In this document: piece by piece, positions 28,511-64,000 of the stretch
How positions within the stretch are numbered: the stretch's first letter is position 1
Layout of the letters: each line of letters begins with the position of its first letter
NCBI GenBank assembly: GCA_965262775.1
Contig: CBDHFT010000006.1
Span: forward strand, 323,437-387,436
Direction: 5' to 3'
Source: Alphaproteobacteria bacterium
GTDB taxonomy: Bacteria; Pseudomonadota; Alphaproteobacteria; JASGCL01
Length of the DNA: 64,000 bases
Made by a program: the position numbers and the translations under genes
Notes under the pieces: model-generated
What the model saw: only the letters and a program-made list of their open reading frames with translations
What the model was told of the DNA's origin: nothing
Databases searched by the model: none

Positions 28511-29245
28511 TTAATCGCGCATTTCAGACCCGCCATTGATATGCAATGTCGCGCCCGTTACGTAACCTGCTTCGCGGCTGGCTAAAAACACCACGCCCGC
28601 TGCTACATCGTTGGGTTGGCCAATTTCGCCGCTGGGCACGCGTTCCAACAATTCGGCGCGTTGTTCCTCGGTCAATTTATCGGTCATTTCGGTTTTGACC
28701 AAACCTGGCGCAACGCAATTAACGGTGATGCCGCGCTTACCATATTCTTCGGCTAGGGTGCGGGTTAGGCCCGTCATCGCGGCTTTGGTGGCAACATAAT
28801 TGGCTTGCCCCGCATTGCCAGCGTGCCCCACGACCGATGTAATGGAAATAATACGACCAAATTTGCGCTTCATCATCGAACGGATCAAGCCGCGCATTAA
28901 GAAAAATCCCGCGGTTAAGTTAACTTGCAAAACATCGTCCCATTCTTCGTCCTTCATCAACACCGACAGGTTATCACGGTTAAGCCCCGCGTTGTTGACC
29001 AAAATATCGACGCCAATTTTATCGGATTCCTTAATCAATTTTTGCACATCGGCGCGATCTTTTAAATTGGCAACGATGATATGTGATTTGTTGGGTAATT
29101 TTTTTTGTAAGGCTTCTAATTTATCAACCCTTGTTCCGCTTAAAATAACTTCCGCGCCTTGCGTGCTCAATGCCGTGGCGATGGCGGTGCCGATGGAGCC
29201 TGACGCCCCTGTGACCAATGCTTTTAATCCCTTAAGTTCAAACAT
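28511..29245 (-). CDS. fabG: 3-oxoacyl-[acyl-carrier-protein] reductase
   Basis: SDR fold with TGASGSIG Rossmann motif, NAG, and YxxxK catalytic residues; 244 aa, downstream of fabD. Confidence 0.9.
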   Translation of the reverse strand: MFELKGLKALVTGASGSIGTAIATALSTQGAEVILSGTRVDKLEALQKKLPNKSHIIVANLKDRADVQKLIKESDKIGVDILVNNAGLNRDNLSVLMKDEEWDDVLQVNLTAGFFLMRGLIRSMMKRKFGRIISITSVVGHAGNAGQANYVATKAAMTGLTRTLAEEYGKRGITVNCVAPGLVKTEMTDKLTEEQRAELLERVPSGEIGQPNDVAAGVVFLASREAGYVTGATLHINGGSEMRD

Positions 29246-29302
29246 GTTTTTAAATCTTATATTCTTTATTGATAGTTTTTACATCAAATTTCTATATGCG
29301 CT

Positions 29303-30259
29303 TTATACTGGCTTTTGAAAAAATGCAAGTTGTTCTTTGATGTCGTTGACGTTGCCAATATTGATGGTTTGCGCGGTGGGGGCAATGCGTTTTACCAAAC
29401 CGCTCAGCACGCGGCCCGCGCCAACCTCCACAAAATGGGTGAAGCCATCCTGCGCCATGTTAAGAATAGTTTCGCGAAAGCGAACGGCACCACAAATTTG
29501 CGCCACCAGGTCGGATTTCATTTTTACATTATCGGTTTGCGCCATGGCGGTAACATTGTTGTAAACTGGCAGGCTCGGTTTGGCGAGCGTAACCTCGGCC
29601 AGGGCCTCCTTCATTTTTTCTTCGGCTGGCTTCATCAGTGGCGAATGGAACGGGGCCGATACGGGCAAGGGCACCGCACGTTTCAGTCCCTGGGCCTTGG
29701 CTAATTCGATTGCTTTTTCAACGCCTTCTTTTTTGCCAGAAATAACAACTTGCCCATCGGCATTATCATTGGCGCAGGCAACCACCGCGCCCTGCGCCAC
29801 GGCTTCGGCAATAATTTTTTCAACATCTTGCCAATTCATTCCCAACAACGCGGCCATGGCACCAACCCCTGGCGCGACCGCCGATTGCATGGCGGCGCCG
29901 CGAATTTTTAACAATTTGGCGGTGGTGGCAAGGGGCAGGGAATCCACCGCGGTAAGGGCGGAATATTCGCCAAGGCTGTGGCCCGCCACCGCGCTTGCCA
30001 TGGCGGATATTTTTTTGCCCGTTTCCTGTTCCAACACGCGTAATAATGCGATGGAGGTTACCATCAAGGCTGGTTGGGTAAATTCGGTCATGGTTAATTT
30101 TTCGGCGGGACCATTGAAGATGATGTCGCTCAAACCCATGTTGAGGGCGGAGTCAACCTCCATAAATATATCGCGAGCCAGGGGAAATTGGTCATGAAGG
30201 TCTTTGCCCATGCCCACGGTTTGCGAGCCCTGCCCAGGAAACAAAAAAGCAATTTTCAT
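29303..30259 (-). CDS. fabD: malonyl CoA-acyl carrier protein transacylase
   Basis: FPGQGSQ, GHSLGEYSAL active-site serine motif; 318 aa. Confidence 0.9.
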   Translation of the reverse strand: MKIAFLFPGQGSQTVGMGKDLHDQFPLARDIFMEVDSALNMGLSDIIFNGPAEKLTMTEFTQPALMVTSIALLRVLEQETGKKISAMASAVAGHSLGEYSALTAVDSLPLATTAKLLKIRGAAMQSAVAPGVGAMAALLGMNWQDVEKIIAEAVAQGAVVACANDNADGQVVISGKKEGVEKAIELAKAQGLKRAVPLPVSAPFHSPLMKPAEEKMKEALAEVTLAKPSLPVYNNVTAMAQTDNVKMKSDLVAQICGAVRFRETILNMAQDGFTHFVEVGAGRVLSGLVKRIAPTAQTINIGNVNDIKEQLAFFQKPV

Positions 30260-35026: not shown

Positions 35027-36487
35027 TTATTTAATTAGTTTTTCGACAATTTCCTGCGCCAATTTATCGGCGGTGAATTCCCCCGCCGCCAACCACGACG
35101 ACAATGATAACCTGTCTTGGGCCATGGGGTATAGATACTGGCTTTTCATTATTTGGCGGGTTTCAACCTCGGCAAAAAAATGACTGCCTTTTCCCAGCAC
35201 GCGTTCGATAACCTGTGCTTGAATATTGGCATCGTTTATCATCGGCGGCATGATGGCGCGTTTAACCATGGCGAGCATATCGTGGTCGGTTATCAAATTA
35301 TTTTTGCTGATAATTTGACCGTCGGCCAATAACCCCGCGCTTTGCCCCACCACCAAACCGCAATGTTGGTTAAGGGCGGTTTGCACCAAACCCATTAAGC
35401 CCAGCGATTTTTCTATACCCGATTGGTTGTCGGGCAATTTGGCCGATGTTTGCGTGGTCGCAACCATGGCGGGGATTTGGTAAAAACGCGCCACCCGCAC
35501 CGCCAATTGTTGCGCCACCATGGTTTCCGCGCTGCCCGTGGTGGTGGTGCCCTGCTTAAGGTCGGATGTGTAGGGAACAAAACCAAAGACAAATGGTGCG
35601 CCAGGGGCAATAATTTGAGTCAAGACCAACCCTGCCAAATTCATGGCGAGGGCCAAGGTGATGGAACCCGCCACGGTGGCGGGGGCGGTGGCGGCGGCAA
35701 TTGTCACCGCGCGGTTTTCTATCACCATGCCGTGGGCAATGGCGTCAAACAGGCTGGCCGCCAGGTCGCTATCGAGCGATAGGTTGGGCAAGAAAGCCGA
35801 TAACCCGAGCGCGGCGCGTTGCGGTAAATCGGGGAATTTTTTTAACAGCGCGGGCATAACATGATGATTATGCAATTCGACGACAAATGGCTTTGCGTTA
35901 TGGTCATAAAGTTGTTGCACCATGGTGTCGTAGGCTTGCTCGATGGAGCCTAGCTCGCTCGCCAAGATGTCGGGTTTGGCGAAGAAGCCTAACATGTCAT
36001 AAAGCGGCATGGCATGGGCAATCTTAACCATGGCCAGGCTGTCGGCACTGGTGATGGGGCGGTAGGTGGCTTGTTTGATGGTGGTGGGTTCGTAAAGATG
36101 GCTGGCACTGCCCCCGACGGCAAAAAATATTGTTGCTTGATTTTGCTCGAACGCCAAATTTTTATCTTGGGCGGGGCGATGAATGGTGCGCGGCGCGGTG
36201 GATAAAGCCTGCAATATTATTTTTTCGCTTAGGGCAAGCCGCCCATTGGGCAGGGCTTGGCAACCCGCGGCCATGATTTCTTTGCGCCATTTTTCATCGC
36301 GCACCATAATGCCAACGTTTGATAAAATTTTTATCGCCGCTTGATGCAAGAGGTGGATGGGGTCGCCACCCGCGTCCTGTAAATAATCTTGTAAATAGGT
36401 TGCAACGCCAGCGGGCGGCGGGGTTACCGCTATGCCGCCTTGCAACTGAAGCGTTTCGTCTATTTTTATATTGCCGCGTCTAACCAT
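35027..36487 (-). CDS. MttB-family (trimethylamine / glycine betaine type) methyltransferase homolog
   Basis: 486 aa with no signal peptide. The N-terminal region (IHLLHQAAIKILSNVGIMVRDE...AGCQALPNGRLAL...STAPRT) and the C-terminal region follow the MttB superfamily pattern. Confidence 0.5.
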   Translation of the reverse strand: MVRRGNIKIDETLQLQGGIAVTPPPAGVATYLQDYLQDAGGDPIHLLHQAAIKILSNVGIMVRDEKWRKEIMAAGCQALPNGRLALSEKIILQALSTAPRTIHRPAQDKNLAFEQNQATIFFAVGGSASHLYEPTTIKQATYRPITSADSLAMVKIAHAMPLYDMLGFFAKPDILASELGSIEQAYDTMVQQLYDHNAKPFVVELHNHHVMPALLKKFPDLPQRAALGLSAFLPNLSLDSDLAASLFDAIAHGMVIENRAVTIAAATAPATVAGSITLALAMNLAGLVLTQIIAPGAPFVFGFVPYTSDLKQGTTTTGSAETMVAQQLAVRVARFYQIPAMVATTQTSAKLPDNQSGIEKSLGLMGLVQTALNQHCGLVVGQSAGLLADGQIISKNNLITDHDMLAMVKRAIMPPMINDANIQAQVIERVLGKGSHFFAEVETRQIMKSQYLYPMAQDRLSLSSWLAAGEFTADKLAQEIVEKLIK

Positions 36488-51979: not shown

Positions 51980-52140
<161 letters not shown>

Positions 52141-57317: not shown

Positions 57318-58292
57318 ATGACAATTACAACGCGCTTGATGGGTGGACTGGGCAACCAATTGTTTCAATATGCGGCGGGGCGCGTCTTGGCAAAAAAACA
57401 TAAAACGACACTGAGGTTGGATACAAGTTTTCTGGCGCAACAAAATAAAAATATTACCAACCGCCCTTATGAACTGGCACCCTTTACCCTTAAAATTGAT
57501 AGGTTGGAAAATTGCGAGCCTGGCGAACAGGATAAAGTCATTGAAGAAGATAATCTGACCGCCCCCGAAGCATTCATGGCAAGCCCGCCCGATAGTTTTT
57601 TGATAGGTTATTGGCAGGGGCGATTTTATATAGAAAAAATAAAAGATGAATTGTTGGAAACCATCAAACCGACAAAACCATTGTCAAAACAATCGCAACA
57701 AATATTAAGCCAAATAAAAAAAACCAATGCGGTGTTGGTGCATATTCGCCGTGGTGATTACGCAACCTTATCGTCCGCCAATCGGTTTCATGGTTTGTTG
57801 CCGATGGATTATTATCAAAGGGCAATTAATGAAATGCTGCGCCATGTAAAAGACCCAAGTTTTTTTATTTTTTCTGACGACCCGCAGTGGGTAAAAGAAA
57901 ATTTAGCAATAGCAAATCATAAAACGGTATATGTAACCCACAACCAAGGAAAAAATTCATGGCAAGATTTAATATTAATGAGCCATTGCCAACATGCCAT
58001 TATCGCCAACAGCAGTTTTTCTTTTTTGGCGGCTTATTTGTTACAATTGCGCCATGCCAAGGATGCTAAGGGGGAGGGCAAGGAGGGTGGCAAGGCGAAT
58101 ATCATAGCACCACGCGAATGGTTTCGCGCGCGCGCCGTTGACCAAGAAAAATGGTTTCCAGCTGGTTGGCAATTGTTATCGGCCCAGCCCCGTTCGCCAT
58201 TTCGTACTTTCTATAGGTTATTGACAAGCAAGATAAAAACCCGCATTAAATTAACGATAAAGCGACATAAAACCAAAGGCATAACAACATGA
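57318..58292 (+). CDS. glycosyltransferase family 11 (alpha-1,2-fucosyltransferase-like) with a Lys/Gly-rich C-terminal extension
   Basis: GT11 N-terminal signature LMGGLGNQLFQYAAGR; 324 aa. Its stop overlaps the next start as ATGA. Confidence 0.75.
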   Translation: MTITTRLMGGLGNQLFQYAAGRVLAKKHKTTLRLDTSFLAQQNKNITNRPYELAPFTLKIDRLENCEPGEQDKVIEEDNLTAPEAFMASPPDSFLIGYWQGRFYIEKIKDELLETIKPTKPLSKQSQQILSQIKKTNAVLVHIRRGDYATLSSANRFHGLLPMDYYQRAINEMLRHVKDPSFFIFSDDPQWVKENLAIANHKTVYVTHNQGKNSWQDLILMSHCQHAIIANSSFSFLAAYLLQLRHAKDAKGEGKEGGKANIIAPREWFRARAVDQEKWFPAGWQLLSAQPRSPFRTFYRLLTSKIKTRIKLTIKRHKTKGITT

Positions 58293-61520: not shown

Positions 61521-61837
61521 CAGCATGGTAAAATAACATATAAGAATATTATTTTTTAACTCAATATTGTAAAAAATATACAACCATCGCCATTTTTTTC
61601 AAAATATGGTTTGCGATTCGCTAATCTTATAGTATAATTTTTTTATATTTAAGGAAATGATGCTGTTTTGCTGATTAATGTTGCCTGGATAAAATTTTTG
61701 CTTGACAGATTTAAAGAAATAGTGGAAAGCAAGAATAGTAAAATAATAATCAAAAAAAAACATATAGAGAACATAAAATAGCGTATATTAATAAAAATAT
61801 AAAAGGGAACAAGCGTTACAATGTAAGCAATTTATCC

Positions 61838-61868
61838 TTTGTATCCAATAATTAATTGCAAGTAATAT
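61838..61868 (+). promoter_or_regulatory. putative sigma70-like promoter (TTGTAT-N18-TAATAT) for the FabH-like gene, followed by a 5' UTR palindrome
   Basis: Hexamers read at about 61838 and 61862. The palindrome ACTTAC-TTGAAT-GTAAGT lies at 61891-61908, and the RBS AAGGAAGG at 61926-61933. Confidence 0.3.
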
Positions 61869-61940
61869 AAATATCACATCAGCTAATCTAACTTACTTGA
61901 ATGTAAGTAAAAATTTTTTTAAGAAGGAAGGAATACAGAG

Positions 61941-62945
61941 ATGGCAAAACAAGAACACGGTTTTAAAATAGCAGGCATGGGGCGTTATTTGCCCAAACGT
62001 TGCGTTACATCAAAAGATATTGATAAAATGACGGGCATGTCGGAGGGTTATACCGAAGAACGCACCCACATCCATCAACGTTATTGGGTTTCGGAAGGGG
62101 AAACAACCCTGTCCATGGCCAAGGCAGCCTCGGAGGAGGCATTGAAAAAAGCGGGCATTACGATAGACGATGTTGGTTGCGTTATTAACGCGGGCGTTTT
62201 GGTGCCACAAATTATTCCTTCGACTTCTTCTTTGTTGTTGTATGAATTTGGTACATCGAAACAAGATTGTTTTGATGTCGATTGCACCTGCTTAAGTTTT
62301 GTTAAGGCCCTGGATATTGCCGATTCCTTGGCGCAAACCAAAGATTACAAACATATTCTTATATTCACCAGCGAAATTGCATCCTACGGGATTCAAGATG
62401 GCCATCATGATGTAAAAAGCCTGTTTGGCGACGGCGCGGTGGCGATGGTTTTGAGTAAAGAAAAAGGCGCGAAGTCGCATGTTATGGGTTCGGTATTCCA
62501 AGCCTTCCCCGATGGCGGCGCATTTAGCCAAGTACGTGGCGGCGGCACCCGCACGCACCCCAAGGCCAACAAAGGAACATTGCCCGAGCTAACAAGCTAT
62601 GACTTTGAAATGCAAGGTCCCAAGGTGTTTAAAGTGGCGAGCAAGAATTTCCCTGCCTTCATGAAGTCGGTGTTAGAAAAAGCCAATGTTAAAATGGAAG
62701 ATATTGATTATATCATCCCGCACCAAGCCAGTTATCAAAGTATTATTCAAATTCAAAGACGTTTGGGCGTCAACGATAACAAGGTTCTGCGCACCATTGA
62801 AAATTATGGCAACCAGGTTTCTGTTTCCATCCCCAATGCTTTTTACGAATTGTTTGATTCGGGGCAATTAAAATCGGGCGATAAGGTTATGTTCCTTGGC
62901 GCCGCCGCGGGTTTGGTATTGGGTGCGGTGGTATTGCAATACTAA
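61941..62945 (+). CDS. 3-oxoacyl-ACP synthase III (FabH-like / KAS III family) condensing enzyme, orphan and divergent
   Basis: Thiolase-fold protein with a Cys/His/Asn triad in FabH-like contexts (FDVDCTCLSF, IIPHQASYQSI, YGNQVSVSIP); 334 aa. Preceded by a 420-bp AT-rich non-coding region. Confidence 0.7.
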   Translation: MAKQEHGFKIAGMGRYLPKRCVTSKDIDKMTGMSEGYTEERTHIHQRYWVSEGETTLSMAKAASEEALKKAGITIDDVGCVINAGVLVPQIIPSTSSLLLYEFGTSKQDCFDVDCTCLSFVKALDIADSLAQTKDYKHILIFTSEIASYGIQDGHHDVKSLFGDGAVAMVLSKEKGAKSHVMGSVFQAFPDGGAFSQVRGGGTRTHPKANKGTLPELTSYDFEMQGPKVFKVASKNFPAFMKSVLEKANVKMEDIDYIIPHQASYQSIIQIQRRLGVNDNKVLRTIENYGNQVSVSIPNAFYELFDSGQLKSGDKVMFLGAAAGLVLGAVVLQY

Positions 62946-62975
62946 TAATTAATTATCATTTTTTTTAGATAATTC

Positions 62976-63344
62976 ATGAAAAAAAATAAGGGCTTGGTAT
63001 TTGGCGGTGCGGTGTTAGCATGGTTGCTGCCTATCGCGGTTAGTTTTTTCATGGTTGATGGTTCGACCACGCCCCATAGTTATAAACCCAATATTTATGT
63101 ATTTAAATTGGTGATGTTTATTTTGGCATCGGCCATTGCCTATTATTTTTATAAAAAATTGAGGGATAAAAAAGATTTGACCATTACGGTGGCGCATGTA
63201 TTTCTTGCGACTTCGGTCTTGCTTGACATGATATTGCTTGTGTCGGTTTTTAAAATGCCCTTTATGATATGGGTTGCAATGATATTGCCATTTTATCTGG
63301 TTGCCTTTTATGGGATTTACTTTTTGCTAAACTATAAGAAATAG
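62976..63344 (+). CDS. hypothetical small membrane protein (3-4 TM)
   Basis: 122-aa hydrophobic ORF between the FabH-like and MBL genes. Confidence 0.4.
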   Translation: MKKNKGLVFGGAVLAWLLPIAVSFFMVDGSTTPHSYKPNIYVFKLVMFILASAIAYYFYKKLRDKKDLTITVAHVFLATSVLLDMILLVSVFKMPFMIWVAMILPFYLVAFYGIYFLLNYKK

Positions 63345-63359
63345 TTTATCATCACCGCT

Positions 63360-64000
63360 GTGTTATCAGTAAAATTTTACCAGGCTGGTTTTTGTAAACA
63401 CCCTGAATGCGTGATGAGCGGGCGCATAACTTTAAGTGGTTTAAAAAATGTTTCTATCCCCATGGTGTGTACCCTTATCAAACACCCCAAACATGGGTTG
63501 ATGTTGTTTGATGTTGGGTATAGCGATAATTTTTTAAAAGCATCCGATAAAATGCCATATCGTTTGTATCGTATGGTAACCCCCGTTTCTATCGGTGAAA
63601 CCCTGGTCGAGATGTTGGAACGCGACGGTATTGATAAAAATGATATCAAATATATTTTTATTTCACATTTTCATGCTGACCATATATCGGCGGTCGATGA
63701 TTTCCCCCAAGCAAAAATTATTACCGCCCAGGCGGGTTATGATTATGCAAAAAAAAATAACGGGGTTTGCGGCGGTAAAAAAAGGATTATTACCCGATCT
63801 GATGACGTTGTTTAAGAAACGAAAATTTGAATTTATCGAAGATAAAAAACCTATCAAGGGGCATAAAAAACTTTATAATTTTATAACCCACGATATTTTT
63901 GGTGATGGTGCAATGGTGGCGGTTGATTTGCCCGGTCATGCACGTGGCCAGCATGGATTATATTTGCAAGATACCAACCGCGGAAAAGTATTTTTGGTGG
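63360..64000 (+). pseudogene. MBL-fold metallo-hydrolase (lactonase/thioesterase-like); the ORF-track frame stops at 63815 but homology continues in the +1 frame to the window end, with the frameshift at the A6/A7 run near 63777-63783
   Basis: HFHADH (HxHxDH) lies in the ORF-track frame. ...GLLPDLMTLFKK...HDIFGDGAMVAVDLPGHARGQHGLYLQD... (the PGH motif) lies in the other frame. The text as printed has A6 and gives one continuous frame, whereas the ORF track implies A7. Confidence 0.55.

Follow-up and report, generated by a model that had tools for sequence, protein, structure and literature searches.

A three-gene ketosynthase and metallo-hydrolase cassette in an alphaproteobacterium as a candidate reduced form of a widespread biosynthetic cluster

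A stretch of 64,000 nucleotides from an alphaproteobacterium (contig CBDHFT010000006.1 of assembly GCA_965262775.1, positions 323,437 to 387,436; hereafter the window) ends in a locus where a long AT-rich spacer is followed, on one strand, by genes for a beta-ketoacyl synthase III-like enzyme (KAS, 334 residues), a hydrophobic protein of 122 residues and a metallo-beta-lactamase (MBL)-fold protein. We favour, with a confidence that modestly outweighs our doubts, the reading that this three-gene cassette was formed by gene loss from a widespread and uncharacterised biosynthetic cluster and retains the condensing and hydrolytic steps proposed below. The parent seven-gene cluster probably makes a small lipid-like molecule. 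Sequence comparison supports a dedicated small-molecule pathway for the cassette as well, since the KAS does not resemble a canonical FabH, the solved relatives of the MBL are almost all lactonases and the two genes are linked across genomes.

The distribution of the two enzymes provides the broadest view of the locus. KAS and MBL genes are linked at at least 12 loci (loci are denoted here by L numbers), most of them within a larger cluster, and this linkage across many divergent genomes bears out a preliminary description of the window, in which FabH-like enzymes and MBL hydrolases were said to recur as a pair. KAS homologues with 44–58% identity to the window protein all reside in one conserved cluster, the MBL orthologues of which are 42–45% identical. 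At loci L008-L012 the cluster reads KAS, NAD-dependent reductase, MBL, adenylate-forming enzyme, ATP-grasp protein, a 380-residue protein (U380) and a Rieske/VanA-like oxygenase, and the window KAS and MBL genes keep the order and orientation of these orthologues. The best NCBIfam match of the reductase is OleD (2-alkyl-3-oxoalkanoate reductase; 193 bits over the full length, cutoff 580), the adenylase passes the TIGR02304 'F390 synthetase-related' model (357 against a cutoff of 252), the ATP-grasp protein is PRK06849-like, and U380, which has no Pfam family, is named GNAT or BioF2-like in some sources. The seven genes are also found in the Wolbachia of Tyrophagus putrescentiae (L021, 3822-11130), where the cluster is visibly decaying, with KAS split into two open reading frames (ORFs), the adenylase fragmented and ankyrin-repeat genes adjoining, while a rearranged six-gene version in Cytobacillus gottheilii (L013) is without the Rieske gene. 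Homologues of U380 are named from Parachlamydiaceae, Ca. Jidaibacter, Legionella drancourtii, Shewanella and Paenibacillus. UCH and Fic proteins are encoded among the neighbours of large-cluster loci in metagenome-assembled genomes (MAGs), and such neighbouring genes suggest that several of the MAGs carrying the cluster are host-associated. No polyketide synthase (PKS) or carrier-protein genes occur near KAS at any locus examined, and literature searches returned no published work on the seven-gene cluster.

The three-gene form, in which the membrane-protein gene lies between KAS and MBL, was found in the window, on the related chromosome OZ241918.1 (L001), and at L005, L014 and L023, the last with extra copies resembling the transmembrane (TM) protein; at L022 the upstream synteny is alike and the contig ends just past the KAS gene. 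Genes for the reductase, adenylase, ATP-grasp, GNAT-like and Rieske proteins are absent from the window and from the L001, L005, L014 and L023 loci. In a neighbour-joining (NJ) tree the three-gene KAS clade is nested in the large-cluster clade, the joint clade receiving 100% bootstrap and monophyly of the large-cluster sequences alone 38%; this joint clade has the Bacillales PRK07204 type as its sister, with MxnB and CorB outside both. Because of this nesting, the three-gene form is best read as a secondary reduction, with loss of the reductase and of four genes downstream and gain of the membrane protein, and the locus as a pared-down version of a larger, conserved cluster, not an isolated invention. 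No U380 copy from the OZ241918.1 chromosome appears among the best 120 homologues, a soft indication that this chromosome really lacks the tailoring genes.

The catalytic triad of the KAS is intact, as the preliminary description had stated, and the alignment places it at Cys117, His261 and Asn291 (C112, H244 and N274 of E. coli FabH, whose reference sequence for the residue alignment was checked against PDB 1HN9). The protein scores below the curated cutoffs of PRK07204 (309 vs 402), PRK09352 (230.1 vs 249) and TIGR00747 (206.4 vs 292.1), and likewise below those of the DarB/StlD models NF005293 (54 vs 450) and NF053539 (35 vs 550). Relative to E. coli FabH it carries His for Arg151, Ser for Asn247, Gln for Arg249 and Ile for Phe87, while the GFGGG loop has become GAAAG (Phe304-Gly-Gly to Ala-Ala-Ala) and the HQANxRI motif HQASYQS; in the E. 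coli enzyme Arg151 stacks on coenzyme A (CoA) and Arg249 is a docking residue for acyl carrier protein (ACP). These substitutions are alike in three-gene and large-cluster homologues. The earlier characterisation of the enzyme as divergent and not of the housekeeping FabH type is thus upheld by the three sub-cutoff scores and by the loss of Arg151, Asn247 and Arg249. Of the solved structures, MxnB (179 bits) and CorB (176 bits) match best, both at 34% identity, ahead of Aquifex FabH (156), E. coli FabH (122), PqsD (85) and OleA (71 bits). An insertion in the KAS, FSQVRGGGTR, follows a pattern (FSxVxGGGxR) common to MxnB and CorB, and Ile92 occupies the position of OleA Glu117, MxnB Val94 and E. 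coli FabH Phe87. In OleA (E117) and PpyS (E105) a Glu at this site is contributed by the partner subunit as the base (PMC4578411). The sub-cutoff scores, the replaced residues and Ile92 in place of this Glu set the KAS apart, as far as its sequence indicates, from canonical FabH and from the OleA/PpyS, DarB and PqsD types. It appears to resemble MxnB and CorB most, though distantly, which agrees with an earlier guess at a pyrone-type ketosynthase.

Family searches for the MBL, run with the intact L001 orthologue (279 residues), gave N-acyl homoserine lactone (AHL) lactonases as the best models (AttM, 83.9 vs a cutoff of 390; AiiA, 52.9 vs 375), with further matches to AhlS, AidB and 4-pyridoxolactonase, all far under their cutoffs. 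At E <= 1e-3 the PDB relatives are AHL lactonases, 4-pyridoxolactonase and two generic chains ('Beta-lactamase' and 'Zn-dependent hydrolases'); neither PqsE nor glyoxalase II nor RNase Z is among the matches at this threshold, so that the MBL does not look like the tRNA-processing or glyoxalase enzyme whose presence would have undercut the preliminary description. The ligands of the binuclear site (H103, H105, D107, H108, H193, D215 and H266) are invariant across eight orthologues. Equally invariant in these eight is Trp218, which stands where lactonases have a Tyr three residues past the bridging Asp (AiiA Tyr194). By these matches the MBL would belong to the AHL-lactonase clade: with AiiA, AttM and GcL it shares the HxHxDH...H...D...H site, the overall alignment and its best family and PDB matches, and it differs from them in its score (84 against the cutoff of 390), in having Trp for the catalytic Tyr and in being always encoded beside a condensing enzyme.

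The small membrane protein is modelled by AlphaFold as a bundle of four TM helices (pLDDT 93). No PDB fold matched this model (all E > 3), and no Pfam or NCBIfam family scored above cutoff for the protein. An exhaustive search of 1.8 billion proteins yielded a family of 44 cluster representatives in which Trp16, Asp84 and Tyr107 are invariant, and at five metagenome loci, located by a scan with a 10-sequence alignment, family members adjoin unrelated genes and not KAS or MBL. The ratio of nonsynonymous to synonymous rates (omega, 0.2–0.4) indicates that the 122-residue ORF is a real gene. Its origin as a leftover of the lost reductase was considered and rejected, there being no similarity at E < 1e-5. 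At L023 (5389-6295) two tandem copies of the gene stand between KAS and MBL, one encoding 183 residues with a Gly/Asp-rich C-terminal tail and the other an 80-residue fragment like the C-terminal half.

OZ241918.1, the circular 1,632,298-bp chromosome of an uncultured alphaproteobacterium (loci L001 and L004), is ~91–95% identical to the window in DNA, and the KAS proteins of the two are identical residue for residue, with ~46 synonymous and 0 nonsynonymous differences between the genes. Against the more distant L005 lineage the KAS retains 93% amino-acid identity (omega 0.03–0.04), compared with 70% for thiD, 69% for MBL, 56% for TM and 34–81% for 14 neighbouring genes; the corresponding nonsynonymous rates (dN) are 0.049 for KAS and 0.13–0.68 for the neighbours. 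Identities to L014 are 81% for KAS, 56% for MBL and 41% for TM. With synonymous rates (dS) saturated, omega is 0–0.04 for KAS, 0.05–0.16 for MBL (0.05 against OZ241918.1) and 0.2–0.4 for TM, values by which all three cassette genes appear to be under purifying selection. Recent horizontal transfer was rejected as the cause of the KAS conservation because its synonymous divergence (pS 0.65) equals that of its neighbours (thiD 0.62, MBL 0.62). Where the large cluster is present, KAS and MBL have diverged to a like extent (46–62% vs 46–55% identity), and with rates this similar the slowdown of KAS would be specific to the reduced, three-gene clade. Such unusual constraint suggests that the KAS product matters much to the cell. 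The polynucleotide phosphorylase (PNPase) of the window is at most 65% identical to that of named Rhodospirillales-type genera.

The MBL gene was correctly recognised in the preliminary description, as was its HFHADH motif; a break in its frame at a run of nine A residues was overlooked. The ORF stops at 63815, and beyond the run coding continues in the +1 frame. Comparison with OZ241918.1 reveals six single-base insertions in the last 12 kb of the window, all within homopolymers. They interrupt cydA, a MauE-like gene, MBL and, at three points, thiE, all of which are intact in OZ241918.1; in thiE the frame is restored after the third insertion. Six homopolymer insertions in otherwise intact genes, together with an MBL omega of 0.05, argue that the MBL frameshift is a probable assembly error and not the mark of a pseudogene.

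The genes thiE-thiM-thiD lie upstream of the cassette, whose three ORFs the preliminary description had placed as found here (Table 1). The gaps are 30 bp between KAS and the membrane gene and 15 bp between the membrane gene and MBL, neither gap contains a terminator-like site, and the cassette is probably an operon. The KAS gene also lies, as had been proposed, away from any fab operon, fabD and fabG being 31 kb off on the opposite strand. These two genes are adjacent at 28511-30259 (minus strand) with a LysE-type exporter gene next after fabG, and acpP, fabF and fabH are not beside them; type II fatty acid synthesis (FAS II) is present, the initiating KAS was not located in the window, and no second KAS III or canonical fabH was found in its 64 kb. 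GC content at third codon positions (GC3) is 0.49 for KAS, 0.48 for PNPase, 0.39 for the 5' part of MBL and 0.53–0.58 for thiD, thiM, fabD and fabG. The TM gene is AT-rich (GC 0.37, GC3 0.46), and the large-cluster loci examined have 31–43% GC. Such a base composition is consistent with an ancient transfer from a donor of low GC, followed by only partial adjustment to the host. Directly 3' of MBL, in three of the three lineages with sequence there, is a SOUL/HEBP-family gene encoding an N-terminal hydrophobic segment (L001 12325-13032; L005 10261-10917, 8 bp from MBL; L023 7210-7869), which may belong to the same transcription unit as MBL; in L001 a promoter-like site separates the two. A role for the cassette in anti-phage defence was considered and rejected, there being no PADLOC matches for KAS, TM, MBL and three large-cluster proteins.

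The spacer between the thiD stop (61520) and the KAS ATG (61941) is, as described earlier, a 420-bp AT-rich leader (24.3% GC); no other internal spacer of the window is as long, and no other intergenic spacer as rich in AT. In the comparison of close strains (window, L001-L003), its identity to L001 is 94.9%, where other spacers reach 69–93% and one small spacer 95.7%. In sister lineages it is shorter (102 bp in L005, 182 bp in L022 and L023). All of the leader motifs listed in the preliminary description are present, the coordinates of both copies of the AATGTAAG repeat having been given one base too low. L001-L003 retain both arms of the palindrome, L001 with 5 nt between them, whereas the palindrome is absent from L005, L022 and L023. 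Compared with 1000 dinucleotide shuffles of the leader, neither the perfect 6-bp inverted repeats (4 observed, 5.0 +/- 3.0 expected) nor the repeated 8-mers (15 observed, 10.5 +/- 4.0 expected) exceed chance, and the tight regulation argued from these motifs is not supported by them, as they stand at shuffle level and are not conserved in relatives. An RNA element was likewise ruled out: Rfam searches of the leader at E <= 1 and of the whole window at the gathering threshold returned only a chance match to an internal ribosome entry site and four tRNAs, and the fold of the leader RNA has no excess structure (z = -0.27).

The sole spacer element common to all lineages contains a perfect -35-like TTGACA within a CTTGACA box, after which further columns are invariant in register. 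The box precedes the KAS ATG by 240 nt in the window, 237 in L001, 238 in L002, 117 in both L022 and L023, and 83 in L005. By a rough estimate that does not count the in-register matches, coincidence alone would give three diverged spacers a common 7-mer of this kind in ~3% of cases. No good -10 hexamer lies 16–18 nt downstream, and the box is a candidate promoter or operator. If a promoter, it would give a lineage-specific 5' untranslated region (UTR) of ~200 nt, an arrangement compatible with regulation without being evidence for it.

Table 1. Features of the cassette and of its upstream region, in window coordinates
Feature	Position	Strand	Remarks
Putative KAS III-fold condensing enzyme, 334 aa	61941-62945	+	ORF, profile scores, alignment
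Predicted four-helix membrane protein, 122 aa	62976-63344	+	ORF, model, conservation
Predicted MBL hydrolase, AHL-lactonase clade, 5' two-thirds (~279 aa in relatives)	63360-64000	+	GTG start; continues past window end; frame broken
A9 homopolymer, +1 frameshift in MBL gene	63748-63756	+	A8 in OZ241918.1
Homopolymer insertions	56131, 58953, 59180, 59198, 59494, 63749		Comparison with OZ241918.1
AT-rich spacer, lineage-specific	61521-61940	+	420 bp, 24.3% GC
CTTGACA(G/A)AT...AAAT..T.GAA, perfect -35-like TTGACA	61701-61727	+	Sole spacer element common to all lineages
Best sigma-70 consensus match TTGCGA-16-TATAAT, 10/12	61611-61638	+	-35 is TTATGA in L001-L003; absent from shorter spacers
Promoter-like sequence of the preliminary description, TTGTAT-N18-TAATAT	61839-61868 (TAATAT at 61863)	+	-10 is CAATAT in L001-L003; not listed by consensus scan
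Palindrome ACTTAC-N6-GTAAGT	61891-61908 (arms 61891-61896, 61903-61908)	+	
AATGTAAG repeat	61820-61827 and 61900-61907		Second copy is AACGTAAG in L001-L003
Mini-ORF MMLFC (then stop)	61657-61674		MTLFY in L001-L003
Shine-Dalgarno-like GAAGGAAGGA	61923-61932	+	8 nt before KAS ATG; kept in L001-L003

A mechanism can be proposed for the cassette on the basis of these assignments. An acyl thioester (of CoA or ACP) would acylate Cys117, after which His261 and Asn291 would activate a second thioester for Claisen condensation, leading to a beta-keto-acyl or a cyclised pyrone or lactone product. The lactonase-type MBL would then cut an ester, thioester or lactone bond, resulting in product release or ring opening, while the membrane protein would either tether KAS and MBL to the membrane or help a lipophilic product to enter or cross the membrane. 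The ancestral cluster would in addition have had its product reduced (OleD-like enzyme), adenylated, ligated (ATP-grasp and GNAT-like proteins) and oxidised (Rieske protein); lacking reductase, adenylase and ligases, the three-gene clade would stop at the core product, left untailored. The cassette would be expressed from its own upstream region, the rest of the leader being lineage-specific filler or 5' UTR.

MxnB and CorB, stand-alone ketosynthases from the myxopyronin and corallopyronin pathways, form alpha-pyrones. The KAS shares with their structures (PDB 4V2P and 4YUC) the KAS III fold, the Cys-His-Asn triad, a hydrophobic residue in place of the Glu base, Ser at the position of FabH Asn247 and the insertion described above. 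It differs in that MxnB and CorB take as substrates beta-ketoacyl chains bound to carrier proteins of trans-AT PKS lines, whereas the KAS has no PKS or ACP genes near it at any locus examined, and in that the two enzymes are only 34% identical to it and lie outside the cluster-associated and Bacillales KAS clade of the NJ tree. With E. coli FabH (1HN9) the KAS has in common the fold, the length, the triad and the Pfam ACP_syn_III domains, but it scores below cutoff, has the FabH residues replaced, is not beside plsX or fab genes and has its homologues in accessory clusters. The large cluster itself differs from the window clade by the five genes lost there, by the membrane gene gained and by a KAS that has become much slower in the latter.

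The preliminary description drew a parallel with PqsD and PqsE. Its two-enzyme logic stands, a KAS III-type condensing enzyme being followed by an MBL-fold hydrolase that in the PqsD/PqsE case releases a beta-keto acid. Specific homology of both partners is not seen, PqsD being a distant relative at 85 bits and PqsE being absent from the MBL matches at E <= 1e-3, and neither an anthranilate-CoA ligase gene nor PqsBC genes accompany the cassette. OleABCD is the head-to-head olefin and beta-lactone pathway, and the ancestral cluster resembles it in combining a thiolase-fold condensing enzyme, an OleD-family reductase, an AMP-forming enzyme and a hydrolase. OleA, however, matches at 71 bits and has a Glu117 base that is absent from the KAS, the reductase scores 193 against the OleD cutoff of 580, the cluster adenylase is PaaK/F390-like and not OleC-like, the hydrolase is an MBL and not of the alpha/beta fold, and reductase and adenylase are missing from the window. 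Both parallels are best taken as functional analogies and not as memberships.

Several points weigh against a cassette of accessory metabolism reduced from the larger cluster. An enzyme of accessory metabolism would not usually evolve, as the KAS does, 3–7 times more slowly than the genes around it. The chemistry is drawn by analogy from distant relatives (34% identity to MxnB and CorB), and with Trp218 for Tyr and a score of 84 against 390 the MBL may not be a lactonase. The MBL copy of the window is itself frameshifted, and the thiD-KAS junction has no terminator-like site, leaving room for read-through from the thi genes. The slow evolution of the KAS is also the chief attraction of an explanation that we regard as improbable, namely that an acquired KAS has become the initiating condensing enzyme of FAS II and displaced FabH, with MBL and TM as passengers or unrelated genes. 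The KAS is the slowest-evolving gene nearby (0 nonsynonymous against ~46 synonymous differences; 93% identity to L005 against 34–81%), it seems more conserved than PNPase (95% and 93% vs 90% and 83%) if the MAG lineages are rightly paired by their source names, its GC3 comes close to housekeeping values, MBL and TM having a higher AT content, and the 64-kb window has fabD and fabG but no fabH. What a FabH replacement leaves unexplained is the KAS itself, which is below all curated FabH thresholds, has His and Gln for Arg151 and Arg249, HQASYQS for HQANxRI and GAAAG for GFGGG, and matches in these residues the homologues of the accessory large cluster with no sign of re-adaptation to FabH chemistry; MBL and TM, moreover, are still linked to it and under purifying selection in four lineages. 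A bolder form of the favoured reading, to which we hold only tentatively and at well short of even chances, would make KAS and MBL the core of a widespread uncharacterised pathway for a new lipid-, lactone- or pyrone-derived class of compounds in intracellular bacteria, with a rearranged variant in at least one Bacillales genome; in the present small-genome alphaproteobacterial clade, where the pathway is pared down to KAS, membrane protein and MBL, the KAS would be effectively indispensable and slower to change than PNPase. If true, the indispensability could stem from a product that is an essential component of the membrane or envelope, or from fatty-acid initiation having been taken over with non-FabH chemistry.

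It seems unlikely, although a little less so than the displacement of FabH, that the locus is a signal synthase with its quencher, in which the KAS makes a pyrone or lactone autoinducer, the MBL degrades it and the long leader gives tight control. The nearest solved relatives of the KAS form alpha-pyrones (PMC5724707), and stand-alone KAS III-like enzymes that make pyrone signals exist (PMC4578411), such as PpyS for photopyrones, but the Glu base of the PpyS type is absent from the KAS (Ile92; PMC4578411). Similarly, the MBL falls within the quorum-quenching lactonase clade but has Trp in place of the lactonase Tyr, and the leader, at 94.9% identity between close strains, exceeds most spacers (69–93%, with one at 95.7%) but its motifs are at chance level and not conserved. 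The conserved neighbourhood contains no LuxR-type or other receptor gene, and the ancestral adenylase, ATP-grasp, GNAT-like and Rieske proteins look like the multi-step synthesis of an elaborate molecule and not of a simple signal. Nothing at the locus identifies the product as the signal postulated in the preliminary description. We give hardly any weight to the view that the cassette is a functionless, decaying remnant of the seven-gene cluster with the frameshifted MBL as its next loss. Four or five ancestral genes are gone, the MBL frame is broken in the window and the same cluster is degrading in Wolbachia (KAS split, adenylase fragmented). Yet every gene of the cassette has an unbroken frame in OZ241918.1 and L005 (the contig of L014 is incomplete), and at L023 the KAS ORF, which the gene caller had called short, is full-length, with intact TM and MBL genes and extra TM-like ORFs between KAS and MBL. 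The MBL frameshift of the window is one of six single-base homopolymer insertions within 12 kb, others of which hit cydA and, three times, thiE, as would be expected of assembly error. The low omega values (KAS 0–0.04, MBL 0.05–0.16, TM 0.2–0.4, with saturated dS) largely refute decay.

Stand-alone KAS III-like enzymes are the source of several bacterial signals and antibiotics, among them precursors of the Pseudomonas quinolone signal (PQS), photopyrones, dialkylresorcinols, olefins, beta-lactones and the myxopyronin pyrone. The present locus points to another stand-alone KAS III clade, always paired with a lactonase-type metallo-hydrolase, of which the three-gene form would be the smallest natural version and the easiest entry to the core product. 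It is also a cautionary case, in which striking leader motifs prove to be at chance level and the MBL looks truncated, most likely through an error of assembly.

Further differences between the window and OZ241918.1 lie outside the cassette. A 33-bp tandem repeat starting from the 3' end of tRNA-Ser(cga) (51980-52069) occupies 52066-52139 in the window and 86-288 in L001, its copy number being variable (2.2 in the window vs 6.2 in OZ241918.1), and in L001 the gene caller placed an 87-residue ORF across it. At 58058-58090 the window has a 33-bp in-frame insertion relative to OZ241918.1, encoding a Gly/Lys/Glu-rich segment near the C-terminus of a family-11 glycosyltransferase. Elsewhere in the window an MTTB-family (trimethylamine methyltransferase-like) gene at 35027-36487 (minus strand) is next to ABC-transporter permease genes and a Fur-family regulator, a neighbourhood that may be a quaternary-amine demethylation module.

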